From UHGV virus genome UHGV-0090440: 64,000 nt of DNA; one strand, written 5' to 3'. This stretch comes from a virus. Below, in pieces: positions 9,056 through 42,802 of this stretch (positions within the stretch are counted from its first letter, which is position 1; every line of letters begins with the position of its first letter). Under the pieces are notes generated by a model, which had not been told where the DNA came from, did not search any database, and saw only the letters and a list, made by a program, of their open reading frames with translations. Made by a program: the position numbers and the translations under genes.

Positions 9056-9131
9056 TGGTGGCCCCTACCGGACTTGAACCGGTGACCGTGCGATTATGAG
9101 TCGCCAGCTCTAACCACTGAGCTAAAGGGCC
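9056..9131 (-). tRNA. tRNA-Ile (anticodon CAU, ileX-like)
   Basis: 76-nt cloverleaf by hand folding: acceptor GGCCCTT/AGGGGCC, D-arm GCTCAGTGGTTAGAGC, anticodon loop CTCATAA, T-loop TTCAAGT, encoded CCA. Near-identical to E. coli ileX as recalled; CAT could also read Met. Confidence 0.85.
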
Positions 9132-9285
9132 AGATTACTGTTAATTCCGCTTACGCTTTTTGCCAGGACCGCGTAAGGCTTTTGCTGCTTGCTCGACCCC
9201 ATATACAACCACCAGCAGAAATAAAAATGTCCACCAAGGGTTCTTATCGGCAAACGTCCAAAATTCCATCATGTTCTCTATTTGG

Positions 9286-10113
9286 TTATTTCACCGGAAC
9301 AAACGGAACAGCGGTATTACTGGTCATATACTGCGGTAGCGTTCCGTTCCATTTGTTGATCGCTTCCAACTCCATAACGCCGGGGTTCTGGCGCAGAGCC
9401 TCACCGCGTAAACGAATGGCATCAGCTTCAGCCTGGGCTTTTGTGCGAATGGCATCGGCCTGTCCGGCAGCTTCTGCGCGCAGCATGTTGGCTTCTGCTT
9501 CGCGTTGCTTGACTTCCTGCTCGCGTTGCAGAGTTTTCTGGTTCGCCGTGACTTTGGCATTAATGCTGTCGATAACGGTTGGCGGGTACTCCGGCTTGCC
9601 CACATATGAGAGGCTCATTACCTGAATACCGATGGGCGTCATTTCTTCCTGGATGTCTTTAAGAGCTGCATCCAGTAGTTCAGACTTGCCACCGTCGATA
9701 AATTTGTCGGTGGTCATTTTGCTGGCCAGTCGGTTAAGTGCGTCGGCAATCTTCTGGCGCAGATCGGTGTCGGTAATGTCATCCACGCCTTTGCGGTAGG
9801 TCTGAAATACAGTTGTGACTTTTGCCGGATCAACCTTGTAAGCTACACCAATGTGGTAACCAATTGTTGTCCCGTCGCTCATTTGGAAGCTGAACGGATC
9901 ATCATAGGTCTTCATTTGCTTAAAGGTCGGGAAGATATAAACTTCTGTGTTCCAGCCTGTCCAGTAGCGACCAACGCCAACTACTTCGCCGACACCTTTA
10001 TCATCCCCCAGCTTATTTACTTTGATCCCTACATTGCCTGGTTCTACCCGGTCGCATCCGGTCAGACATAAAGAACCAAAAATAATCGCTGCACTAATCA
10101 ACGTTTTTTTCAT
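9286..10113 (-). CDS. SPFH/band-7 domain lipoprotein
   Basis: 275 aa; signal peptide with lipobox LTGC; SPFH-type core and Ala/Glu-rich coiled-coil tail (EAEANMLRAEAAGQADAIRTKAQAEADAIR). Confidence 0.8.
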   Translation of the reverse strand: MKKTLISAAIIFGSLCLTGCDRVEPGNVGIKVNKLGDDKGVGEVVGVGRYWTGWNTEVYIFPTFKQMKTYDDPFSFQMSDGTTIGYHIGVAYKVDPAKVTTVFQTYRKGVDDITDTDLRQKIADALNRLASKMTTDKFIDGGKSELLDAALKDIQEEMTPIGIQVMSLSYVGKPEYPPTVIDSINAKVTANQKTLQREQEVKQREAEANMLRAEAAGQADAIRTKAQAEADAIRLRGEALRQNPGVMELEAINKWNGTLPQYMTSNTAVPFVPVK

Positions 10114-10330
10114 TAATCAATTTCCTGGTTTTTTCACGAAAAAAGACTACTGCAAAAGCCGGGTAAATGAGCGCGAGAAGGACTCCCAACAATACAAGTA
10201 TTGTGCTGTCAGATGAGATCATATTTGGCAAAAGCCAAACATACAGAACCAGTGACACAATCAAACAGAGGACGGCATAAATATATAGCCGCACCCATAG
10301 CGTTCGACATTTGTTCGGATTGTTCTGCAT
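10094..10330 (-). CDS. small membrane protein
   Basis: 78 aa with two hydrophobic helices; overlaps the start of the SPFH gene (operon partner). Confidence 0.5.
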   Translation of the reverse strand: MQNNPNKCRTLWVRLYIYAVLCLIVSLVLYVWLLPNMISSDSTILVLLGVLLALIYPAFAVVFFREKTRKLINEKNVD

Positions 10331-10370
10331 CCTCTCACTCCATTATTCAACGAATAAAAAAGCTGCGGTG

Positions 10371-10385
10371 CCTGGTGCCTCCAGG
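10371..10385. other. conserved hairpin CCTGG-TGCCT-CCAGG
   Basis: Second copy of the GGTGCCTCC-core hairpin; on the minus strand it is followed after 9 nt by a T6 run and lies about 45 nt upstream of the 78-aa gene start. Confidence 0.4.
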
Positions 10386-10477
10386 TGACGTTAACCAGTT
10401 AACAATTAACGCCGGGATGTTTGATTTAACCACTACGGAGGATTGTTTTAACTGTTCCGCGTGCGCTTAGCCGCATT

Positions 10478-10592
10478 CACCGCAATGGTAAGAGCACTTG
10501 GCTGGCTGGGCGGCGATGACGCCTGTACGCATTTGGTGATCCGGTTCTGCTTCCGGCATTCGCTTAATTAGCCAAATACTCTTAACGTTGCG
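10478..10592 (-). ncRNA. structured element, family member E2
   Basis: Arms CACCGCAATGGTAAGAGCACTTGG / CCAAATACTCTTAACGTTGCG enclosing internal hairpins; begins 2 nt after the 3' end of the Ser-like tRNA candidate. Confidence 0.3.
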
Positions 10593-10593
10593 C

Positions 10594-10680
10594 TGGCGGA
10601 GAGTAATGGAATCGAACCATCATCGCTTGCGCAATGGGACGGTTTTCAAGACCGCTTGAGCACCATGCTCCCTACTCTCC
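10594..10680 (-). tRNA. tRNA-Ser(UGA)-like, atypical; possible pseudogene
   Basis: 87 nt: perfect 7-bp acceptor GGAGAGT/ACTCTCC, T-arm GATGG-TTCGATT-CCATT, anticodon stem-loop GCGGT-CTTGAAA-ACCGT (anticodon TGA), 17-nt variable arm, encoded CCA; but A at position 8 and a short D-loop. Hand-folded only. Confidence 0.4.
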
Positions 10681-10802
10681 AATTGTTGTGGTTACCGGTA
10701 CTGATCTCCGGCTTAGCGACCCCGGCTACTGACTGCATTGCAGTGTGTGAACTCGCCTCGTGTGTCGCTGGGGCATTTCTTTCCGCGCATCAGTCTGCGC
10801 AT

Positions 10803-10882
10803 CAACCACAACGGAAAGAGCATTGGCTAACCAGGCTCGCCGACTCTTCACGATTATCGGCCCAATGCTCTTACCTGTTGTG
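10803..10882 (-). ncRNA. structured element, family member E3
   Basis: Arms CAACCACAACGGAAAGAGCATTGG / CCCAATGCTCTTACCTGTTGTG with a 34-nt insert. Confidence 0.3.
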
Positions 10883-11061
10883 CGCTCCGTTTCGTGGAGC
10901 TAACGGCGGGTGATCGGGCCGCACCAGACTGGACTTATTTCAGCGTTATGCTCATGCCAGAGAATCAAACTGTGATGGTCGGTGCTGAACTCCGACACAG
11001 GGTTGTAGCAAGCCCCGCAAAGCGCGCACTACTGTAGTTGCGGCACATCAGCCTGTGCATT

Positions 11062-11161
11062 CACCACAATGTTGAGAACACTGGTTGTCACGCTGCCTCG
11101 CGACCTTTATTCATAGATTGGGATATGACCCCGTTACGCCAATGTTCTCAACGTTGTAGTG
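11062..11161 (-). ncRNA. structured element, family member E4
   Basis: Arms CACCACAATGTTGAGAACACTGG / CCAATGTTCTCAACGTTGTAGTG; insert contains an AGGCAG-loop hairpin. Confidence 0.3.
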
Positions 11162-11297
11162 CCGGTTACGGTTCCGGCCAGGCTTCTTCCTCAACGGGGT
11201 GTTCTCCATACGGACTACCGTTTATTGGTCGTTCCTGCGGTTTATGTTGTGAAGCCAGATGCTTATCTTCTGGTTGCTTCAAAGAGCTGCACTTCAT

Positions 11298-11384
11298 CAC
11301 AACGGTAAGGGTACTTCGTAGGGATTCGAACCCTCTGCCAAGCTCGGCGATCTCCGACGTCGCAAAATACCCTTACCTGTTGTG
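11298..11384 (-). ncRNA. tRNA-like element E5 (no anticodon arm)
   Basis: 16-bp stem CACAACGGTAAGGGTA/TACCCTTACCTGTTGTG enclosing a D-arm-like hairpin (GCGA-CGTCGGAGA-TCGC) and a T-arm-like hairpin (GAGGG-TTCGAAT-CCCTA); starts 2 nt after the tRNA-Thr 3' end. Confidence 0.35.
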
Positions 11385-11385
11385 T

Positions 11386-11461
11386 TGGTGCCGGTTAACG
11401 GACTCGAACCGCTGACATCCTGCTTACAAGGCAGGCGCTCTACCAACTGAGCTAAACCGGC
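11386..11461 (-). tRNA. tRNA-Thr (anticodon UGU)
   Basis: 76 nt: acceptor GCCGGTT/AACCGGC, D-arm GCTCAGTTGGTAGAGC, anticodon loop CTTGTAA, T-loop TTCGAGT, encoded CCA. Confidence 0.9.
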
Positions 11462-11465
11462 AATT

Positions 11466-11552
11466 TGGTGGGGAGTGATGGAGTCGAACCACCCGAGTCG
11501 CAATGACAGTAGATTTACAGTCTACCCCGCTGCCCCTACGGACTAACTCCCC
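11466..11552 (-). tRNA. tRNA-Tyr (anticodon GUA), type II
   Basis: 87 nt: acceptor GGGGAGT/ACTCCCC, anticodon stem-loop GTAGA-CTGTAAA-TCTAC, long variable arm, T-loop TTCGACT, encoded CCA. Confidence 0.8.
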
Positions 11553-11557
11553 TAAAT

Positions 11558-11632
11558 TGGCGATGGTGGGTGGATTCGAACCACCGACCAGTTGGTTAAC
11601 AGCCAACTGCTCTACCGCTGAGCTACACCATC
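11558..11632 (-). tRNA. tRNA-Asn (anticodon GUU)
   Basis: 75 nt: acceptor GATGGTG/CACCATC, D-arm GCTCAGCGGTAGAGC, anticodon loop CTGTTAA, T-loop TTCGAAT, encoded CCA. Confidence 0.9.
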
Positions 11633-23558: not shown

Positions 23559-24190
23559 ATCACGCTTCAAGTCACGATCCAATCATTACCGACTATATCA
23601 GCCGTCGATAAATCAACTTCCCGGATCTGGAGTCCATCAGTGTGCCTCCGCAATGCTGGGATTGGTAATATTGCGATACCAGGGATTAGTGTTTGGTTGT
23701 GGGGAAGTAGAGAAACGACCAGTAAGAACACCATACTGATCAGGGATCAGAGAACGGGCTTCTTTTTCGGTTGCGGCAATTGCGAAGTGATCGCAGTGTT
23801 TTTGCAGGGAGTGGAAACGCCAGATGAATTCTGGACGTGAGCAAGGATTGGCATTAACCATAGTTACGGCCTCACTAACAGGTTTAACAACCTGCTACCC
23901 GCTGTCAAACAGGTGGCAGGACGTGACAGGGTTGACAGACTGGCGTTAGTGAAACCAGCAGGCCGAAGCCTCCCCATCACGCCCCACCATAATTCGGGCG
24001 TAACGCGATTTACGGACACAAAAATACCGCAATATCGGAAATCTGCGGTTGTCCGCACTAACATTCAGGCTGTCAAACCTGGTCGCAGAATTTGCTACGA
24101 CGGCATTAATATAAGCCTGAAAACATGGAAGATCAACTAAAAATTTCAGCAATGGATGACTTCAGTCGATGATGCAGATCATACATTCCG

Positions 24191-31969: not shown

Positions 31970-32582
31970 GCTCATCCTCCAGGCGCGCGATTTCTTCTTT
32001 AAGAGCACGTGTCTTAGCTACTTCCTGAGACAAGGCAGCTTTAACGTTACCCGTATCTTGCATTACTTTGTCTGACTTGCTCTGGAGTTTAGACAGTTTG
32101 TCGTTAGCATTAGCGATATCTTCACGGAGTGCATCACGTGATTCTTTCGCTTCAGCTAATCTCTGAGCGTTGGATTTAACTCCCTGCCGCTTCTTATTTT
32201 CGTCATCAATATTTTTTGCTGCACGAGCAAGTTTTCGAGCTAATGACTTCTGGAAAGAAGTTGCTCCGCGATTAAATAAAGCCGCAAGAGATTGCCCCAA
32301 AGCCGACATTGTTTTTACTGGCTTGAACGGTACTGTTTTACCATTCAGTTTGATCCCAGATATATCACCGGTATCGTTAACCTGAACTTCCATTGTCTGT
32401 TCATCAAGACCAATAAGGGTAAACGTGCGCGTCATGATCCCATCTTTCTTCCTGCCATTACTTGCAGGGACCACCCTCGCTATCTTGTAACCACCTTTGC
32501 TGATTTCTTTGACGAGTTTTGCCAGCCCCTTTTCGTTTAACTCATCATAATTAAGAAGAACATAATTATTCTTATTTGACAT
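31962..32582 (-). CDS. hypothetical protein
   Basis: ORF track start is GTG 32597; ATG 32582 with AAGGAG 6 nt upstream preferred (206 aa). Confidence 0.5.
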   Translation of the reverse strand: MSNKNNYVLLNYDELNEKGLAKLVKEISKGGYKIARVVPASNGRKKDGIMTRTFTLIGLDEQTMEVQVNDTGDISGIKLNGKTVPFKPVKTMSALGQSLAALFNRGATSFQKSLARKLARAAKNIDDENKKRQGVKSNAQRLAEAKESRDALREDIANANDKLSKLQSKSDKVMQDTGNVKAALSQEVAKTRALKEEIARLEDEHD

Positions 32583-33018
32583 CCCAGTCTCCTTCACGCT
32601 TTTCGATCGTAAACTGGCGCTCTATGCAGTCATTGATAGGGAAAATGCGATAAAGCGGATTCAGTCGGCAGTTACCGTTAGTCAATGTGACTTTCAGATC
32701 CCACTTCGTTGGCTCAAGATATTTCGTATCGATGAGCAAATACTCTTCTCTCTCACCGCGTTTTGAGGCGTCAACTGGTCGCGTTTTCCCTGAAATAACC
32801 ACAGATGGATTTTTCAGGTCTTGCAACCAATATTCGATTTGAGCATTGCTGACCCAGCTTCGCTTAACACGTAGCGAAACAGGAAATGCTATAGCGGATT
32901 CTTTCACTACAGCGTCACCAATACTCAAAATCTCAACACTCTTGCGACGAAAAATGAAACGGTCAATGATGGCAACAAATGCCATGATAAAAATGAAATA
33001 ATTCCCAAAGTTACCCAT
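32572..33018 (-). CDS. membrane-anchored protein (antiholin-position candidate)
   Basis: 148 aa with one N-terminal transmembrane helix; coupled to the upstream 108-aa membrane protein. Confidence 0.35.
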   Translation of the reverse strand: MGNFGNYFIFIMAFVAIIDRFIFRRKSVEILSIGDAVVKESAIAFPVSLRVKRSWVSNAQIEYWLQDLKNPSVVISGKTRPVDASKRGEREEYLLIDTKYLEPTKWDLKVTLTNGNCRLNPLYRIFPINDCIERQFTIEKREGDWDVK

Positions 33019-33344
33019 TATTTCTCTCCACCTTTTCCCCCATTCGCTATTACGCTTAAGAGATTCAAGACGTTACTAGCTCTGGACTTCAAGCCCTGTA
33101 AAATTTCTCTTCCGTTGTTACTGGCAATCAGAACAACGCAGAAAATGATACCTTCAGGCCATTCCTGGCTAACCGCCACCCCATACCCCGCAAGCCCGGC
33201 TGTTACCGCAGTAAACAATTCACTCGCAAGATTGAGCAGGGACGCAGAAATGCGCCCGTCTCTAACTCCGAGAAGGAATACGCCGGTTCCACTTAGTAGG
33301 GATGTTATGACTACTACAGCCAGATTTTCATAATCTGCAAACAT
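33018..33344 (-). CDS. holin candidate
   Basis: 108 aa with about three hydrophobic helices and a charged C-terminus (KGGEK); first gene of the long minus-strand operon. Confidence 0.4.
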   Translation of the reverse strand: MFADYENLAVVVITSLLSGTGVFLLGVRDGRISASLLNLASELFTAVTAGLAGYGVAVSQEWPEGIIFCVVLIASNNGREILQGLKSRASNVLNLLSVIANGGKGGEK

Positions 33345-33449
33345 ACCCCTCCAGAAATAACATCTAATGCGCCACTAACTTAGTCAGTTTGTTATTTCCT
33401 TACAGGACATCTTCTAAAATCTCCCTCCTTAACATACAAGGGGGAACAT

Positions 33450-34010
33450 ATGCTTATTGGATACATTCGCGTATCAACTAATGACCAAAACACAGCTTTA
33501 CAACGAAACGCCCTTGAAAGCGCAGGATGTGAGCTAATTTTTGAGGATAAGGCGAGCGGCAAAAAGGCTGAACGCCCTGGGTTAAAAAAGGTTCTCCGTA
33601 TGCTTTCCAGAGGTGACACCCTAGTCGTATGGAAGTTAGATCGTCTTGGGCGCAGTATGCGTCACTTGGTTGTGCTGGTGGAAGAGCTTCGTGACATAGG
33701 CATTAACTTCCGGAGTCTCACTGACTCCATCGACACCAGTACACCAATGGGGCGCTTTTTCTTTCACGTAATGGGGGCGCTGGCAGAAATGGAACGTGAA
33801 CTTATTGTTGAACGTACACGAGCTGGACTTGATGCAGCTCGCGCAGAAGGTCGAATAGGTGGGCGTCGGCCTAAATACCAGGAAGAAACATGGCAGCAAA
33901 TGCGGCGATTGCTGGAGAAGGGCATCCCCCGTAAGCAGGTTGCAATCATCTATGATGTGGCTGTTTCCACTCTTTATAAGAAGTTTCCGGCGTCATCATT
34001 TCAATCCTAA
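33450..34010 (+). CDS. cin: Cin-type serine DNA invertase
   Basis: 186 aa; MLIGYIRVSTNDQ catalytic-serine N-terminus, C-terminal HTH; near-colinear with P1 Cin as recalled; sits directly beside an invertible segment. Confidence 0.9.
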   Translation: MLIGYIRVSTNDQNTALQRNALESAGCELIFEDKASGKKAERPGLKKVLRMLSRGDTLVVWKLDRLGRSMRHLVVLVEELRDIGINFRSLTDSIDTSTPMGRFFFHVMGALAEMERELIVERTRAGLDAARAEGRIGGRRPKYQEETWQQMRRLLEKGIPRKQVAIIYDVAVSTLYKKFPASSFQS

Positions 34011-34147
34011 ACCTTGGTTTAAGAGAACTCGGTACCAGCGGTGAAAAGATCCCCCTGTTGAGCACGGCTAACACATGGAGTGCGCGCCAGACTTTCAACG
34101 GCGGGATCACCGGGGCGCTGACAGGGAACGCCGACACCGCGACGAAA
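34011..34147 (+). repeat. left 137-bp inverted repeat of the C-segment (contains cix core)
   Basis: Exact reverse complement of 40067-40203 by direct comparison; starts with AAACC-TT-GGTTT (34011-34020), a hix/gix/cix-type crossover core. Confidence 0.85.
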
Positions 34148-36463
34148 CTTGCGACGGCAAGAAACATCAACGGTGTTAAATTTGATGGTTCTGTGGACAT
34201 TTCGATACCAACAATTACGTCCAGAGGGCGTGTTACTGCGCTCACCGGTACAACACAAGGTGCTGCTACTGGATTGCAAATGTATGAGGCGTACAACAAC
34301 GGCTATCCTTCTGCTTACGGGAATGTGCTTCATCTTAAGGGCGCAACGGCAGTTGGTGAAGGTGAGTTGTTCATAGGTTGGAGCGGTACAAGTGGCGCTC
34401 ATGCACCTGTACATGTACGTTCGCGACGAGATACTGATACAGCCAGTTGGTCAGAGTGGGCGCAGGTCTACACATCGAAGGATTCCATCCCTGGTGTAAA
34501 TACCACGGGCAACCAGAACACAACCGGAAACGCGGCGTCTGCAACGAAATTACAAACGGCAAGAACTATTGGTGGTGTTTCATTTAATGGCACCGCAAAC
34601 ATCGACCTGCCGGGCGTGAATAAAACAGGCAATCAGAGCACTACCGGCAATGCAGCTACAGCCACAAAACTGCAAACAGCACGCACCATTAATGGGGTTT
34701 CATTTGACGGAACGGCTAATATTTCTCTGTCACCGGCAAATATTGGTTGCCCGGCATCTCCTACTGGTTGGCTTGAAACAGGTGATAATGGAGCATCAAT
34801 AACAACAGAGCAATTAGTGACTCTGCTACGAGATAATGGTGCTTTTAATGCAAAGGTATGGATAGCGCGTTGTGCCTGGGCGTATGCAAATAGTGCATCC
34901 ATACCAGACAGCGAAACAGGATGCGGCATTATTCCACTGGCTGGCGCAGTTATAGAGGTATTTAATAATAGCAGTAGCACGAGTTATTTTACCATTCGTA
35001 TAACAACGGCAACGACGACAAGTGTATCTGGCGCACTCACTAATGCTGAATTTATCTATGTGTCTAATGGCACAAGTTATTCACCAGGATGGCGCAGAGC
35101 GTATAACACTAAAAACAAACCTACTGCGGCTGATGTCGGAGCTTTACCACTATCTGGAGGAGCGTTAACTGGCGGATTAACTGCTGCTGGCGAGATTATT
35201 TCCAAATCGGCGAATGGTCTGCGCATTGCCTATGGCAACTATGGATTCTTTATCCGTAATGACGGCGGCAGCACATATTTCATGCTAACAGCATCAGGAG
35301 ATACGTTAGGTTCATGGAACAGTTTGCGACCGATTACAATTAATAATACCAGCGGTGTTGTGTCTATTGGTAATGGACTAAATGTTACTGGTGGCGTTAA
35401 TGGTAGTTTGAACGGTAATGCAGCGACAGCGACCAAGTTACAAACCGCTAGAACTATAAATGGGGTGTCGTTTGATGGTTCTAAAAATATTGAGCTAACG
35501 GCGGAAGATTTAAATCTTGAGCAAACTGTAGAATTAGCCGCAGGAGCATTGCAGAAAAACCAGAACGGCGCAGATATTCCGGGAAAAGATACCTTCACTA
35601 AAAATATTGGTGCATGTCGCGCTTTTCACAGTTCTATTAGTACAGGTGCAGGGAACTGGACAACGGCACAATTGATTGAATGGCTGGATTCTCAAGGGGC
35701 ATTCAATCACCCATACTGGATGTGCAAATGTTCATGGTCATACGGCAGTAATAAAATTATTACTGACACCGGATGTGGACTTATTCACCTTGCGGGTTGC
35801 GTTATTGAAGTTATGGGCTATAAAGGCGCCATGACCATTCGTATAACCACACCGAGTACCTCTAACGGTGGTGGCACTACGAATGCGCAATTTATATATA
35901 TTAACCACGGTTCAGAGTATTTACCTGGCTGGCGACGTGACTACAACACGAAAAACCAGCAGCCTGCATTTGCTTTAGGGCAGACAGGAAGCATAGTTGG
36001 AAATGACAAAGCTGTTGGATGGAACTCGATTAGCGGGGTTTATAACGCTAATATTGGTGGATCATCTACGTTGATTCTCCATTTTTATATGGGAGCTGGT
36101 AGTTGTCCGGCTGTTCAGTTCCGCGTGAATTATAAGAACGGCGGTATTTATTATCGTTCTGCGCGTGACGGTTATGGTTTTGAAGCCGACTGGTCGGAAT
36201 TTTATACTACAACACGTAAACCATCTGCGGGAGATGTTGGGGCATATACCAAAGCAGAATGTGATTCACGATTTATTACAGGTATTCGATTAGGTACAAA
36301 ATCGTCTGTGCAAACATGGAATGGTCCTGGATGGAACGATAAATCTGGTTATGTTGTTACTGCCTCAATTAACTCAAATAAGGACGAACTTATTGATACA
36401 ACTCAGGCAAGGCCGCTGCAGTATTGTATCAATGGTACATGGTATAACGCGGGAAGTATTTAA
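34058..36463 (+). CDS. alternative tail-fibre C-terminal cassette (Sv'-like), silent in this orientation
   Basis: 801-aa frame beginning with TTG inside the inverted repeat; first 30 aa identical to residues about 420-450 of the 1286-aa fibre; contains [15 protein letters not shown](N/G)GVSFDG repeats. Confidence 0.7.
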
Positions 36464-36465
36464 TT

Positions 36466-36999
36466 ATGCAGCATTTAAAAAACATCAGATCAGGTAATCC
36501 AAAAACTGTTAAACAATATGAATTGACGCGACAATTTGGTGTTGTCTGGTTGTATTCTGAAGACGGTAAAAACTGGTATGAGGAACAAAAGAACTTCCAG
36601 GATGACACTATAAAAATTGCTTACACATCAGATGGAGTTATTGTGGCTATAAATAAAGACGTATCTACAATAAATCCAGAAGGTTTAAGTGTGGTTGAGG
36701 TTGCTGACATTACCGCAAATCGCCGTGCTGACATTTCTGGTAAATGGATGTTCAAAGATGGCGTAGTGATAAAGCGAACTTATACCGAGGAAGAACAGAG
36801 GCAACAAGCTGAAAATGAAAAGCAAAGCCTATTGCAACTTGTCAGGGATAAAACCCAACTGTGGGACTCACAGCTACGGCTGGGCATCATTTCCGATGAG
36901 AATAAACAGAAATTAACCGCGTGGATGCTATATGCGCAGAAAGTAGAATCTACAGATACCTCCATCCTGCCAGTAACGTTTCCCGAACAACCAGAATGA
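36466..36999 (+). CDS. tail-fibre assembly chaperone (U'-like), alternative copy
   Basis: 177 aa; strongly similar to the 37027-37554 product (GNPKTV.QY.LT..F...W...[19 protein letters not shown]). Confidence 0.75.
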
Positions 37000-37026
37000 G
37001 AAAAGGCCCGTTATCGGGCCTTATTT

Positions 37027-37554
37027 TTACTCAGGTTTTTGTGGCCATTCTGGCTTTGACGTATCCACGCGGCTTACAAGAACGCTGTAGCGTTCCCATG
37101 CTTCCAGTCGGCTGTGGTCCTCATCCGTTGCCATATTCAGCCTTACTGCACGCTCTAGTAGTTGAATGACTGATTCAGCATCAGCAAGAAGTCTGGCTTT
37201 CTGATTTTCTACCTGCTGCTGTAATTCCTCTGCCGTATAAATACGTTTAATAACTGCGCCATCCTTAAACATCCAGTTACCAGAAATGTCGGCACGTCGG
37301 TTAGCAGTAATATCCGGCACTTCAACAACACTTAATCCATCCGGTCTGATAGCTGTTACATCCTTTTCCACATAGCGGATGATGTTATCTTTGTCATACG
37401 CTAATTTTATCGTGTCATCCTGGAAGTTCTTTTGTTCCTCATACCAGTTTTTACCGTCTTCTGTAAAAAACCAGATGACATCAAAATGTTTCGTCAGCTG
37501 GTATTGCTCAACTGTTTTTGGATTACCCGCTGTTATATTGATCAAATGCTGCAT
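37027..37554 (-). CDS. tail-fibre assembly chaperone (U-like), expressed copy
   Basis: ORF track start 37629; ATG 37554 preferred ([13 protein letters not shown], 5 bp after the fibre stop), about 175 aa. Confidence 0.75.
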
Positions 37555-37558
37555 AAAT

Positions 37559-40500
37559 TTAAACCTGTGCCACGTTATACCATGTTCCATTAATCTGTTT
37601 CTGAACCGGCCTGTAATATACACCTCCAATATTATCGGCAGAATTCGAGCCGGTATCCTGGACTATAATGCCAGTATAAACGCAGCCTGATGGTGCCTGA
37701 TGCGTCCATGTCGAGGTGTTATTTGCTGGTTTATATGTAGATGCTCCACCAAGTCGCATGTCTCTTACATAACGAGAATCAAAGTTACCGTAATCCGAGG
37801 GGTTAACACGCCCTGTAATATTTATGGTTTTATTACTTTGAATGCTGCCGGAGACAAAGCGCATAACATGAACGTTATTAGCATAAACGTCCAGATTACC
37901 GTCGCCATTTTGTTTAAAGCCCGTGTCATTATCACCCAAAACAATCGAGTTACCGCCAAGAGCACTGGATGTTCCGATGCCCAGTGCACCATTCAATTGA
38001 CCGCCAGATAATGACAACGCCCCAACCTCAGCAGCAGTCGGTTTAATGTGCGAACTGTAAATTACATATACAGTTCCATCTGTCAGGCCTGTTGGTTTAT
38101 TCGCTGTATAAGTTGGTGATGTATGAATCGTTACGCTGGCGTTACTGGTATAATCCCACTGAATATTAACACCTGTGGCGTAATTACCTATTTCAACATA
38201 AACATCATAGGTATCACCGGATGTATTCACCCATGCAAAATTAGTAAATCCAACCGAGGTCCGTCGCCATAATGCACCAGTAATACCTTTTGGATTTCCA
38301 TTTCCTGCACGCAGAACCAGCTCAGAGATGCCTGCTTGCTGCGGGGAGCCAACGTTAAACCCTGCACCACCAATCAGGCTTATGTAAACCACGGAACTGG
38401 CCTGTGGCATGGTTACAGTTGCCAGTTTGAACCATCCAGCACCACCACTAAAAGACATTGTTGTGGAGTTGATCGTGCCTATAGACCGTGGGTTAAGTTC
38501 AATATCTTTAGAACCATCAAACGAGACGCCGTTGATAGTACATGCTGTCTGCAACTTGGTCGCTGTCGCTGCATTACCGGTAGTGTTCTGATTACCTGTT
38601 TTATTCACACCTGGCAGGTCGATATTGGCACTACCATCGAATGACACTCCGCCTATTGTGCGTGCTGTTTGCAGTTTTGTTGCAGTTGCAGCATTACCGT
38701 TCAAACTACCATTGATGCCGCCAGTAACATCCAGACCATGCCCCATGCTTATCCGACCAGTTCTAAGATTAAGCGTAAAGGGACGTAGTGGCCCTATATC
38801 ACCATTTTCCCCCTCATTCTCTCGTGTAGGGATGATATGCAGGCATTCTTCAGAACGACGAAAAATAGCACCAAAAGATGAATTAAATATCCTTAGTGCA
38901 TTGACTGTCGATATTTTTACTTCACTGCTGAAAAGGGCTTTAACAAGGACAGACAAAGCATCCCATTTAAGATTCATCAGGTCTTTTGTTGTGGTGCTCT
39001 GGCGACTTCTCCATTTGAAATATTCATTGCCGTTGTCGCCTGTTTCAAACCACATGTATGAATCAGTATCGCTGTCGGCATCATTTTTAAAACCAATCTT
39101 CGCCCAGTCAGTATTCCGAATCCAGGCAAGGATTGAGTCGTTTTCAAAAGTAAGTCCACCGGACAAGGTATCGCCTGTCTTTTGAACCGCGTTATCAGCC
39201 TTGTTTACCGTTTCCTGTAGATTTAAATCTTCCGCCGTTAGCTCAATATTTTTAGAACCATCAAACGACACCCCATTTATAGTTCTAGCGGTTTGTAACT
39301 TGGTCGCTGTCGCTGCATTACCGGTTGTGTTCTGATTACCTGTTTTATTCACACCTGGCAGGTCGATATTGGCACTACCATCGAATGACACTCCGCCTAT
39401 TGTGCGTGCTGTTTGCAGTTTTGTTGCAGTTGCAGCATTTCCTGAAAGGCTTGAAACAAACTGATGTGAGCAGTAATAACCACGTCCATTTTTAAAATCC
39501 AGAATGGTTTGAGTATTTGTACTTTCTGCTACTGGATCTGTGGCCCCCCACTTATAGGTGGCTTGACCAACGGTATAGTCAGTAGTAGGAACAATTACGT
39601 TCAAGCCCTCCTCAGCAAATATCTTGATAGGAAATGCTCTGGCTTCAACGTAAAATACACTACACAAATCGTCATCTTTCACACTTGAAATAATCGAGTG
39701 TATAGCTCGCTCAGTAGTAGAATATATTGAGAAAAAACCAGCTGCATATGAACCGCGATCAGACCAACCGCCAGGCATAACAAAACCATTAAATTCACAA
39801 TTATTCATGGCGTATCCGCCAGCTGAGGAATAAGTAGTTATCACAACTCGTGAGGCTAATTCATCGGTACTGCCTCCAGATCGGCGAAAGACTATAGGAT
39901 ACCACTTACCGCTTACTGCATTTGCAGGCGCTGAAAAAGTGTATTTTCTCATCCCTTTTTTATTGTCTATTTCGCTTTTGCTGTAAACGTCCAGATCTTT
40001 AGGAGTCAACGTAATGTCAGCCGAACCATCGAACCTGACGCCATTAATGTTTATGGCTGTTTTCAATTTCGTCGCGGTGTCGGCGTTCCCTGTCAGCGCC
40101 CCGGTGATCCCGCCGTTGAAAGTCTGGCGCGCACTCCATGTGTTAGCCGTGCTCAACAGGGGGATCTTTTCACCGCTGGTACCGAGTTCTCTTAAACCAA
40201 GGTATTGGATAACGGCCAGTGTGCTTGTTTTAGCCAGAATATCTCGACCGACTGACGTTAAATCAGTCTGCGCTACCGTATCCTTACCAGTGAAATAAGG
40301 CAGTTTGTTTGCGCCTGTCGCAAGACCAGCAAGCGCGGTTAAAGTTGCATCAAGTGGCTGTTTCCCTGCCAGCGCATTTGTCATTGTTGTCGCAAAGTTC
40401 GGGTCATTGCCCAGTGCTGCTGCAAGCTCATTCAGGGTATCAAGAGCTTCAGGTGATGAGCCGACCAATGCAGAGATAGCAGCCCGTACGTAAGCAGTCG

Positions 40501-41419
40501 TAGCGATCTGCGTATTGTTTGTGCCCTGTGCAGCCGTAGGCGCAGTAGGGACACCCGTTAATGCAGGGCTTGCCAAAGGCGCTTTGAGAGCCAAGGCATT
40601 GTTGATAGTTGTGCTGTAATTCGGGTCGTTATTGATCGCAGCCGCTATTTCTTTCAGCGTATCCAGTGTGCCAGGCGCACCGTTGATAAGTGCAGTTATA
40701 GCTGCCTTAACAAAGGCTGTATTTGCGATCTGCGTGCTGTTTGTGCCTTGTGAGGCCGTAGGCACTGTCGGCGTACCTGACAGATGCGGACTATTGAGCG
40801 GAGCTTTTGTATCAACCAAATCATGAAGAGTTTTGACAGCCAGAGGTGTAGCCGCTTTTCTTTCTTCTGTACTGCTTATTTCATTAGAGAATTCGACACC
40901 AACAGCACGGTTAACTCGGTATTTAAGCACAATCATTTCTTTAGTCACAGCCGTTGCGCCGCCAGGCACGATAACTCGACATAATTCAATTTGATTCTGC
41001 CCAATAGCATTGTCCGTACGCGCGAAAATTCTTGCAGCACTGACAGAAGATGCGCTATCTACCTGTGTCGTTTTTACACCATGTTCAAAATTGGCTTCCA
41101 GCACAATAATGTTGGTAGCCCCAGCCTTTACCGAGACAGTCACATCTTCTATTTGCTGAACGGATATCTGAACATTATTTACATCTACTGAAGCAGCCCC
41201 TTTACCTTCTGAGTTTTCAGAAGTTATACGGACGCTCAACCCTGTGCCGGGAACTGGTTCAAATCCACAGTAAAAGCCCGGCAAAACAATATTTTTAAGT
41301 TTTCTGTTAAGAGCAGAACTACTATAGAGTTCGAAATATTGAACATCAGCAAGCAACGGCTGTGAGACACCAGAGGATAGTGTCATTATGTTGTTCGTTT
41401 TATCAGCACCCATAATCAA
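37559..41419 (-). CDS. tail fibre (constant N-terminal part fused to current variable C-terminal part)
   Basis: 1286 aa; the invertible-segment junction falls at about residue 407-450; repeated [41 protein letters not shown] blocks. Confidence 0.8.
38553..38695. repeat. direct repeat copy A inside the tail-fibre gene
   Basis: About 143 bp, near-identical (one mismatch seen by eye) to 39297-39439. Confidence 0.7.
39297..39439. repeat. direct repeat copy B inside the tail-fibre gene
   Basis: Partner of 38553-38695, 744 bp away and in frame. Confidence 0.7.
40067..40203 (-). repeat. right 137-bp inverted repeat of the C-segment (contains cix core)
   Basis: Reverse complement of 34011-34147; lies inside the tail-fibre gene at the constant/variable junction. 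Confidence 0.85.
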
Positions 41420-41862
41420 CCCTCAACTTGCTCGATTGTCATGAGAATACTGTAACGTTTACCTTTATAGAGGGTGTCTTGCTGGGTGCAAAGCACAGCA
41501 AAAGCCTGTTCCTCAGCATCAACAAGCACAAGCGTGTTAAAGTCGTAAGGCGTGTTATCCGGCATTTTTTCTTGAGGGAAGGCTGCATTGATAGTGATAA
41601 TCCCATCCACACTGGACAATATCAGATCGGACGCAGCAAACTGTTGAGCGTTACTCAATTTAAAATTGAGTGGAATGTCCGCTATATTCCAGCCTCCTGC
41701 ACCATTAGCAGTTACCAGACTAGATTTGCACCAATACGCCTTAGAGATAACAAAACGCGCACCTTTGCCGATCGCCGACTCAGCGCGGCGTGAATAATAG
41801 TAGGAAAGCAATTGCGCCTTATACAGGCGGTTACCATCTCTTACCTTTAAATTTTCAGCCAT
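41416..41862 (-). CDS. tail-fibre-associated structural protein (R-position)
   Basis: 148 aa immediately upstream of, and overlapping, the tail-fibre gene. Confidence 0.4.
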   Translation of the reverse strand: MAENLKVRDGNRLYKAQLLSYYYSRRAESAIGKGARFVISKAYWCKSSLVTANGAGGWNIADIPLNFKLSNAQQFAASDLILSSVDGIITINAAFPQEKMPDNTPYDFNTLVLVDAEEQAFAVLCTQQDTLYKGKRYSILMTIEQVEG

Positions 41863-41956
41863 ACGAACATAGCCCCTTCATAAGCAATGAACCAAAGGAG
41901 AGTATGCTCAGTTTGTGATTTCCGTTGTTCTTCCCCCAAATGCGGGGGAAGAATTA

Positions 41957-42802
41957 TTAAACAGGTTGAAGGTGGTAATCCAAAGGCCACGCATCGAGTG
42001 GGGTTACATCAAGATGTAATTGCTTTTCTGCCGTTCGGTTCGGTATGGCGTTAAGAGAAATATTGTCTACCTGGCAGGAGGTATCACTACGGGATAGCAT
42101 ATCAGCCATACTCTCAGTAACATAAACACCTTCAATTACCGAAACATCCGTAGACAAGCAATTTAGTATTTCTGCCACTTCAGGGAATACAGCACTAAGC
42201 CGAAACGAGACGCCATCAAAAACAATATGCAATGGCAACAAAGGGGCTATTACTGTTTCGAAGTCAGATAACAATTTCTGCACAGCGGCTTCTTTATCCT
42301 GCTCTCCATATGAGCGATATAGCTTGTTCTGATCAACAACGACCAGCCCCCTTGATGTCAGGAAGAACTCACCGAATTGAGCCTGTGCCGTAGGTATTTC
42401 TATTTCGGTCGCAAAATATGAACCATAGGGGTGTTTTTCTATATTTACAGGTGCATACAGCGGTTCCCAACTAACTGGAATACAACCGAATTCACGCCAA
42501 AATGTCTGCTCAATAGGCAAGATAGTGCCTTTAAAGTGCACTTCATCTAAACGTTGCGCCAGCAGCATTGGCCTACGGTCCTTATCTTTTTCAGTGATAA
42601 CGAAAAAACGCCCGTATTCAGCAATGCGGGCATCCATATCCTCACTGTCCATAGTGAAGAAGGATTTTCTGTTACTTATTCTTGTTAATATTGGTTCTAC
42701 TGCCTCATTCCAGACATCCTGTAAAGCGTCTATAAATGCACTCCAGAGATGTGAATCCTGTTTTACTTTAGTTAATCGTTCCTTAAGCCAATTATCTTTC
42801 AT
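41957..42802 (-). CDS. baseplate-associated protein candidate
   Basis: 281-aa ORF between the baseplate J-like gene and the fibre module. Confidence 0.4.
   Translation of the reverse strand: MKDNWLKERLTKVKQDSHLWSAFIDALQDVWNEAVEPILTRISNRKSFFTMDSEDMDARIAEYGRFFVITEKDKDRRPMLLAQRLDEVHFKGTILPIEQTFWREFGCIPVSWEPLYAPVNIEKHPYGSYFATEIEIPTAQAQFGEFFLTSRGLVVVDQNKLYRSYGEQDKEAAVQKLLSDFETVIAPLLPLHIVFDGVSFRLSAVFPEVAEILNCLSTDVSVIEGVYVTESMADMLSRSDTSCQVDNISLNAIPNRTAEKQLHLDVTPLDAWPLDYHLQPV

Follow-up and report, generated by a model that had tools for sequence, protein, structure and literature searches.

A predicted P1-type Cin/cix tail-fibre switch carrying a new mosaic of fibre modules in a D6-like phage-plasmid

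Analysis of a 64,000-nucleotide stretch of the virus genome UHGV-0090440 (hereafter, the window) points, with high probability, to a D6-like phage-plasmid whose tail fibre is switched between two states by site-specific inversion, as in the Cin/cix system of P1. All the parts expected of the P1 Cin system are present and nearly identical (Cin, cixL and cixR, the enhancer, a split fibre gene and two chaperones), upholding the sequence-only reading of this region as a Cin-driven tail-fibre switch. The system itself is known and the allele is a new mosaic. The P1 switch and its role in host range have been described (PMC13172314), and divergence of the fibre-switch region among D6-like prophages has already been published (PMC6799933). 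The features of the locus are as follows.

33450..34010, + strand: cin, serine DNA invertase, 186 aa (Pfam Resolvase and HTH_7; identity to P1 and D6 Cin)
33468..33539, inside the 5' part of cin: putative recombinational enhancer (sis), by identity to P1
34002..34027: cixL crossover site, central TT at 34014-34015; CAATCCTAAACCTTGGTTTAAGAGAA is P1 cixL with its flanks
34011..34147: left arm of the perfect inverted repeat, 137 nt
34015..36463, + strand: Sv', silent C-terminal fibre cassette, 816 codons past the crossover, in frame with Sc on inversion
34490..34722, + strand: double linker repeat in Sv', coding twice for the motif GNAA(S/T), ten residues, (G/N)GVSF; direct repeat D2, inverted repeats I2/I3
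35413..35530, + strand: single linker repeat in Sv', 118 nt, 114/118 (97%) complementary to 39206-39323; inverted repeat I6
36466..36999, + strand: U', 177 aa, putative chaperone for tail-fibre assembly, belonging to the silent cassette (Caudo_TAP 6.5e-36; phrog_136 2e-73)
37003..37022: hairpin resembling a bidirectional terminator, placed where U' and U converge; 8-bp stem, 6 GC pairs, T runs on both strands
37027..37554, - strand: U, putative chaperone of the expressed cassette, 175 aa, also 175 aa in the ENA record (Caudo_TAP 2.1e-34; phrog_136)
37559..40199, - strand: Sv, expressed C-terminal fibre cassette, 880 codons
38496..38698, - strand: distal double linker in Sv; 203-nt direct repeat D1, 93% identical to 39240-39442
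39240..39442, - strand: proximal double linker in Sv; D1
40067..40203: right arm of the perfect inverted repeat, pairing with the left arm
40187..40212: cixR crossover site, central dinucleotide at 40199-40200; TTCTCTTAAACCAAGGTATTGGATAA is P1 cixR
40200..41413, - strand: Sc, the constant N-terminal 404 codons of S, beyond the end of the invertible segment
41416..41862, - strand: R, 148 aa, the gene that opens the R-S-U fibre operon (phrog_2032 4.3e-74; PF26881 Phage_P1_tail_fiber_R in the ENA record)

The recombinase matches Pfam Resolvase (PF00239, 3.1e-50, residues 3-135) and HTH_7 (PF02796, 2.8e-18, residues 138-181), and 183 of its 186 residues (98.4%) are identical to P1 Cin, as are 183 of 186 to D6 Cin. 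Its N-terminus, MLIGYIRVSTNDQ, places the predicted catalytic Ser9 within a YIRVST motif, as in P1 Cin (MLIGYVRVSTNEQ). Within cin, at the same offset as in P1 (nt 19-90 of the gene), lies a stretch identical at 68 of 72 nt (94%) to the P1 'enhancer of Cin-mediated C-segment inversion', to which Fis would be expected to bind. The sequence upstream of cin is D6-like rather than P1-like, which bears on cin expression and was counted against an active switch. Likewise, LPs, the late promoter of P1, had no obvious counterpart by eye upstream of R.

The two 26-bp cix sites lie in inverted orientation with matching 2-bp cores (TT/AA) and are base-for-base those of P1. Scanning the 64 kb with the 26-mer consensus, allowing up to 3 mismatches, returned two matches, 34002-34027 (-) and 40187-40212 (+), with none expected from shuffled sequences. 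The AAACC-NN-GGTTT core proposed for both arms was found at the left (AAACC-TT-GGTTT) but not at the right, where the + strand reads AAACC-AA-GGTAT and the outer half of cixR is ATACC. When the sequences were re-compared, 34011-34147 proved, as claimed, to be the exact reverse complement of 40067-40203 over 137 nt, and the inverted repeat reaches 201 nt at 90% (34004-34204 and 40010-40210).

Crossover between 34014/34015 and 40199/40200 delimits an invertible segment of 6185 bp (34015-40199), in agreement with the earlier estimate of about 6.2 kb and longer, as proposed, than the 4256 bp annotated in P1. Inversion in silico yielded uninterrupted fibre open reading frames of 1284 (S) and 1220 (S') aa counted from ATG, or 1286 and 1222 aa from TTG. 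S is likely to start at the ATG at 41413 (1284 aa) and not at the TTG at 41419; the exact 1284-aa protein is called in an ENA scaffold record. The proposed exchange of the fibre C-terminus was thus borne out in frame in silico, although the single figure of 850 exchanged residues was not, the values being 880 for S and 816 for S'. Because the inverted repeat encodes them, the first ~46 exchanged residues are identical in the two products. Beyond this shared part, Sv and Sv' align in patches only, at 32-75% identity.

Both cassettes are modular. Sv' consists of three modules with linker repeats between them and matches Pfam Gp34_trimer and gp37_C as well as PHROG tail-fibre families. Sv is arranged as module A (39443-40010), a double linker, module B, a second double linker and the distal tip; Phage_fiber_2 was the only Pfam family above the threshold used for expressed S. 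Module A itself had no Pfam match but does match PHROG families, and it is common in plasmids, being at least 99% identical in 23.

By analogy with P1, the switch may operate as follows. The R-S-U operon would be transcribed on the minus strand from upstream of 41862, with Sc outside the segment and Sv and the chaperone U inside it. Cin, encoded just beyond the other segment end, would pair cixL with cixR on supercoiled DNA, in a synapse that depends on Fis and the enhancer, cut the central 2 bp, rotate and religate, turning 34015-40199 around. Sc would then be fused in frame to Sv', followed by U', and the hairpin between the two chaperone genes would be predicted to stop transcription in both orientations. 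A phage population would in this way produce particles with one of two receptor-binding tips. By homology with the P1 system, this copy presumably inverts, and its two tips may confer different host ranges.

Gene order is the same as at the annotated locus of D6 and in phage P1 (NC_005856: cin, cixL, cixR, Sv/U, Sv'/U'), where S is split at the same point and U and U' are also Caudo_TAP chaperones. The silent distal tip is shared as well, with residues 859-1220 of the window's S' 87% identical to residues 613-972 of P1 S'. In contrast, the expressed distal tip is unlike that of P1 S (42% over the last 83 residues), Sc is just 67% identical to P1 Sc, the perfect inverted repeat is 137 nt against 562 nt in P1, and there are three or four linker motifs per cassette where P1 has one. 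The backbone is D6-like, not P1-like: window positions 42000-64000 are 95.7% identical to phage D6 (NC_050154) over 98% of that length (22 kb), and Sc matches residues 1-469 of the D6 S protein at 96% identity. The flanks, running from lydA-cin to R-gene 16, are shared with D6 and with D6-like plasmid prophages such as pYU39_89, ptetA and pDEC12A-1, and many plasmids of E. coli and Salmonella match the backbone at 96-98% identity. The window also has a C4 antisense RNA and tRNA genes. The G segment of phage Mu, inverted by Gin at gix, works on the same principle, pairing a serine invertase with an S gene that is split and served by both U and U'. G-segment genes of Mu, D108 and SfMu match the centre of the window's segment (about 35543-39219) at ~80%, and the Gin-type invertases recovered are ~83% identical to the window's Cin. 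However, Mu is transposable, its segment measures 3 kb, and distal fibre modules are all that it shares with the window.

The length of the segment can be accounted for by comparison with its closest complete relative, L019, whose 4550-bp segment is tiled by three pieces of the window, with junction overlaps of 66 and 165 nt that fall within linker repeats. The extras in the window, 891 bp in Sv' and 744 bp in Sv, make up the 1635-bp length difference. The 744-bp module is delimited by 38496-38698 and 39240-39442 and is missing from relatives L009 and L019. The segment is therefore longer than that of P1 because each cassette has one extra module delimited by a conserved fibre linker repeat. 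Across other D6-like and P1-like plasmids, segments range from 3.4 to 6.9 kb, including those of E. coli ptetA (NZ_CP047013; 6947 bp, with a 145-nt perfect repeat) and pDEC12A-1 (NZ_CP077480; ~6.2 kb). This variation arises because fibre modules are gained and lost at the conserved linker repeat, while recombinase, sites and enhancer stay fixed. The extra length is thus ordinary and does not single out this element.

Related loci, in plasmids and viral contigs, were found in both orientations relative to cin. The homologous segment (94-97% identical) has the window's orientation in L009 and is flipped in L017 and L019. In two further loci, L005 and L020, the window's Sv-proximal module adjoins cin at 99% identity, while module A lies in the expressed S of L087 and L088 and, unannotated, beside cin in L090 and L091; between L087 and L091 the flanks are collinear and the segment is inverted. 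Two sibling plasmids of E. albertii have the whole segment inverted relative to each other, with a central 1013 bp in the same orientation in both.

The window is 100% identical to one ENA metagenome scaffold, and its exact proteins were found in one ENA scaffold family only, which is the window's own source; the source sample is SAMEA3360674 (ENA assembly ERZ28589553). About 800 plasmids matched. At megablast level, no record in the phage, plasmid and E. coli collections covered at least 80% of 33000-42000, which makes this set of modules a new mosaic; every one of the segment's modules occurs elsewhere at 84-100% identity.

Several other readings of the locus were weighed. The segment is long and has several internal inverted and direct repeats, as might suit a multiple-inversion shufflon with several crossover sites and many isomers. 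Such a system is Min of plasmid p15B, whose invertase reportedly comes from a related family and likewise works on segments of tail-fibre genes. Min has six crossover sites, compared with two here. Searches of the whole window for a third cix, gix or hix site, using the 26-mer (up to 3 mismatches), the 12-nt core (up to 1) and a degenerate consensus (up to 4 of 20 specified positions), found none; at any threshold above the shuffle background there are two sites. Weaker cix-like matches are as frequent as in shuffled sequence, none of them inside the invertible segment, and the internal repeats are coding linker motifs. A Min-like shufflon working through extra crossover sites was accordingly rejected on these scans and is very improbable. 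With only two cix sites, a two-state switch is the reading that we prefer. It is also improbable, if somewhat less so, that a silent cin or a locked state has stopped the switch from turning and that the Sv'/U' cassette is heading to decay. The family does include locked derivatives, among them pDEC12A-1 with its split cixL, and the exact S and Sv' products are on record in four public contigs, all four in the window's orientation. The silent open reading frame of the flipped state (865 aa, with its start set at a TTG inside the repeat) was absent from the records, where gene callers may pick another start. Records in one orientation are nonetheless weak evidence against inversion, because assemblies show the majority orientation and gene callers may choose another start. 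Against decay stand the intact cin, its product near-identical to the functional P1 protein, the conservation of both cix sites and the enhancer, and an 801-codon silent cassette that, together with U', is free of stop codons and frameshifts, which would be unexpected for unselected DNA.

A richer repertoire could arise if Cin inversion were combined with homologous recombination at the linkers. A nested flip would swap the distal tip and its chaperone, giving four fibres instead of two, and recombination between the 203-nt direct repeats would insert or delete a module. In silico, inversion between 35413-35530 and 39206-39323 produced an in-frame 1046-aa fibre followed by U', together with a 1039-aa silent open reading frame, and deletion between the direct repeats produced an in-frame 1036-aa fibre. 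Relatives are set apart from the window by precisely this kind of repeat-bounded module, and match ends cluster at linkers, with matches in at least 10 related loci beginning at 35413-35530; the unturned centre of the inverted E. albertii segments fits as well. Yet the predicted chimaera of the window's own modules was not found in any relative, and rare evolutionary recombination explains the pattern equally well without a working switch. Moreover, the 26-mer, 12-nt core and degenerate-consensus scans revealed no cix-like site in or near the linker repeats, so such events would rely on general recombination and be infrequent. We therefore regard this multi-state arrangement as unlikely, though less so than either a locked switch or a shufflon. 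That linker recombination proceeds within a lysogen population, and not only over evolutionary time, to give four or more in-frame fibres per locus is slightly more doubtful again.

These findings suggest that a metagenome-derived D6-like phage-plasmid carries the P1 Cin switch essentially unchanged, which in itself has little import beyond annotation. Its cargo is a fresh mosaic of receptor-binding modules that circulate among phage-plasmids of E. coli, E. albertii and Salmonella, and the gain and loss of modules at a fixed linker could guide the engineering of P1-type delivery particles with swapped tips.

The window carries the parts of a Cin-driven tail-fibre switch, which are nearly identical to those of phage P1 and fit together in reading frame, and its gene order follows the annotated loci of the reference phages P1 and D6 gene for gene. 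The serine invertase Cin is identical to P1 Cin at 183 of 186 residues, with the motif YIRVST N-terminal. The features of the locus are:

33450-34010, plus strand: cin, with Resolvase and HTH_7 domains
33468-33539: enhancer, 68 of 72 nt identical to the stretch annotated in P1 as inversion enhancer (cin nt 19-90 in P1)
34015-36463, reading away from cin: Sv', the silent fibre cassette, within the segment
36466-36999, reading away from cin: U', chaperone of the silent cassette
37003-37022: terminator-like hairpin that has T runs on either strand
37554-37027, strand opposite to Sv'/U': U, chaperone of the expressed cassette
41413-37559, strand opposite to Sv'/U': S, the fibre gene of the expressed cassette; codons 1-404 lie outside the invertible segment
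41862-41416: R, the gene ahead of S

The sequence-only reading had described 137-nt inverted repeats, and 34011-34147 is indeed the exact reverse complement of 40067-40203; with a repeat finder each arm lengthens to 201 nt, matching at 90% (34004-34204 and 40010-40210). A 64-kb scan for the 26-nt cix consensus, allowing up to 3 mismatches, matched only 34002-34027 and 40187-40212, with 0 matches in shuffled sequences. Over their 26 bp and the directly adjoining bases, the two sites match P1 cixL and cixR without a difference. The AAACC-NN-GGTTT core proposed for both arms fails at the right-hand site alone, which reads AAACC-AA-GGTAT. With the central crossover dinucleotides at 34014/34015 and 40199/40200, the segment that would invert runs from 34015 to 40199, and its 6185 bp agree with the earlier estimate of about 6.2 kb. 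Scans of the window found no further crossover site at any threshold above background, leaving a simple two-state switch. A Min-type shufflon was excluded, as the site scans give two crossover sites only.

During inversion in P1, Cin dimers on cixL and cixR meet the Fis-bound enhancer on supercoiled DNA, and cleavage at the 2-bp core is followed by strand exchange and religation. Sources on the P1 system include Hiestand-Nauer and Iida 1983, Huber et al. 1985, Iida 1984 and Łobocka et al. 2004; it is also described in PMC13172314 and PMC6799933. Here, inversion would join the constant part of the fibre, Sc, either to Sv and then U, or to Sv' and then U'. When 34015-40199 was flipped in silico, the fibre gene stayed open from its ATG, giving an S of 1284 aa and an S' of 1220 aa, each followed by its own Caudo_TAP chaperone. 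The suggested swap of fibre and chaperone for Sv'/U' would stay in frame; the exchanged parts comprise 880 and 816 residues rather than a single 850.

The segment is longer than that of P1, as had been proposed, and lies within the family range. Cix-to-cix distances span 3360 to 5406 bp among viral-contig loci with Cin at least 97% identical, and reach ~6.2 kb in pDEC12A-1 and 6947 bp in the E. coli plasmid ptetA. The linker, a conserved fibre repeat, occurs once in the variable part of the P1 and D6 fibres, in contrast to four copies in S and three in S' of the window. The complete 4550-bp segment of viral contig L019 is tiled by window 34015-34590, 35413-38656 and 39237-40199, the tile junctions overlapping by 66 and 165 nt within linker repeats. 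Including these overlaps, the window-only piece of Sv' measures 891 bp and that of Sv 744 bp, which sum to the 1635-bp difference to L019; the 744-bp piece is the exact spacing of a 203-nt direct repeat (38496-38698 versus 39240-39442). Bounded by linker repeats, these pieces make the extra length one repeat-bounded module per cassette. Each part of the segment is present in some relative at 84-100% identity, and 23 plasmids carry module A (39443-40010 in Sv, queried as 39443-40060) at 99% identity or more; no single record in the phage, plasmid and E. coli collections has the whole combination. Nested recombination between linkers might provide working extra switch states, given that the 118-nt inverted linkers match at 114 of 118 positions and recombination there would yield products that keep the reading frame; however, rare evolutionary module exchange fits the data equally well, and we regard such states as quite improbable.

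A query of viral contigs with Cin gave 80 loci. Relatives have the homologous segment either way round with respect to cin. Contig L009 matches window 35413-38656 and 39237-40199 in the window orientation, and contigs L017 and L019 carry this DNA flipped (94-97%). In contig L005, which is D6-like and shares 96% identity with the window across 10.5 kb upstream, the window's Sv-proximal module adjoins cin (99%). Module A lies inside the expressed S of the related loci L087 and L088 and adjoins cin, unannotated, in L090 and L091; between L087 and L091 the flanks are collinear and the segment is inverted. All four contigs on record with the exact element are in the window orientation, and the ORF predicted for its flipped form is absent from the record, which is weak evidence either way. 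A frozen relic, with its switch parts present but no longer turning, is unlikely because cin, both cix sites, the enhancer and the 801-codon silent cassette are all intact. The inverted-repeat observation is confirmed and its reading as a Cin-driven fibre switch supported, and we infer that the switch is active in this copy.

Several relatives show other arrangements. Many IMG/VR contigs with near-identical Cin (L011, L018, L022, L025, L026 and others) stop 13-77 bp past the cin match, at or just beyond cixL (locus lengths 10571-10635, cin at 10001-10558); this is assembler behaviour at an invertible repeat when reads hold both orientations. pDEC12A-1 (E. coli O111:H2, NZ_CP077480.1 ~32256-32586, L003 1500-1830) is without an intact cixL. 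Beside cin it reads CAATCCTAAACCTT/GATATCGCC, the outer half-site plus TT core and then reversed fibre linker, and ~310 bp farther along TTCTCTTAAACCAA/CATTAATAC, the inner half-site plus AA core and then the Sv' continuation; the intervening piece is a flipped repeat arm, which the annotation gives as a fibre pseudogene (partial). The arrangement resembles the outcome of Cin inverting DNA between cixL and a quasi-site within Sv', an event that would split cixL and probably leave the switch locked. Between the sibling E. albertii plasmids pEA50_2 and pEA4_97 (L088 5548-6560 versus L090), the outer segment parts are inverted (99.6-99.8%) and the central 1013 bp, where the chaperone genes and the 3' ends of the fibre genes lie, are oriented as the flanks. 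This implies either an assembly artefact or another inversion nested in the first. The junctions have no cix-like site, and the fibre and chaperone frames there look rearranged. The P1-like E. coli plasmid pCombat11I9-3 (NZ_CP021729.1, L089 5517-6062) carries module A and one remaining cix-like site, with no annotated recombinase gene between holin and fibre genes and a serine acetyltransferase gene adjoining the chaperone gene at the second-cassette position; its orientation may have become fixed.

Across 98% of its length, window 42000-64000 shares 95.7% identity with Escherichia phage D6, and many non-mobilizable plasmids of E. coli and Salmonella match it at 96-98%. Rfam identified four tRNA genes, a C4 antisense RNA and the a1b1 target of this RNA on the minus strand (9059-11632 and 23909-24114), the P1/D6-type immunity and tRNA regions expected for such a phage-plasmid. 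An 87-kb ENA metagenome scaffold (DAVI15-1_SAMEA3360674_METAG-scaffold_20, ERZ28589553), 100% identical to the window, encodes the exact S and Sv' products. Its run of 100 N (L085 5867-5966) falls at window 45447/45448, where the window has none, so the window silently crosses an assembly gap of unknown size.

The locus is a known system whose modules, each known already, form a new mosaic; variation of this fibre region among D6-like prophages has already been published (PMC6799933). The tips of S' and of P1 S' share 87% identity, and the latter is reported to bind O-antigen (PMC13172314); the tip of the expressed fibre does not resemble P1 S. The two orientations may differ in host range.
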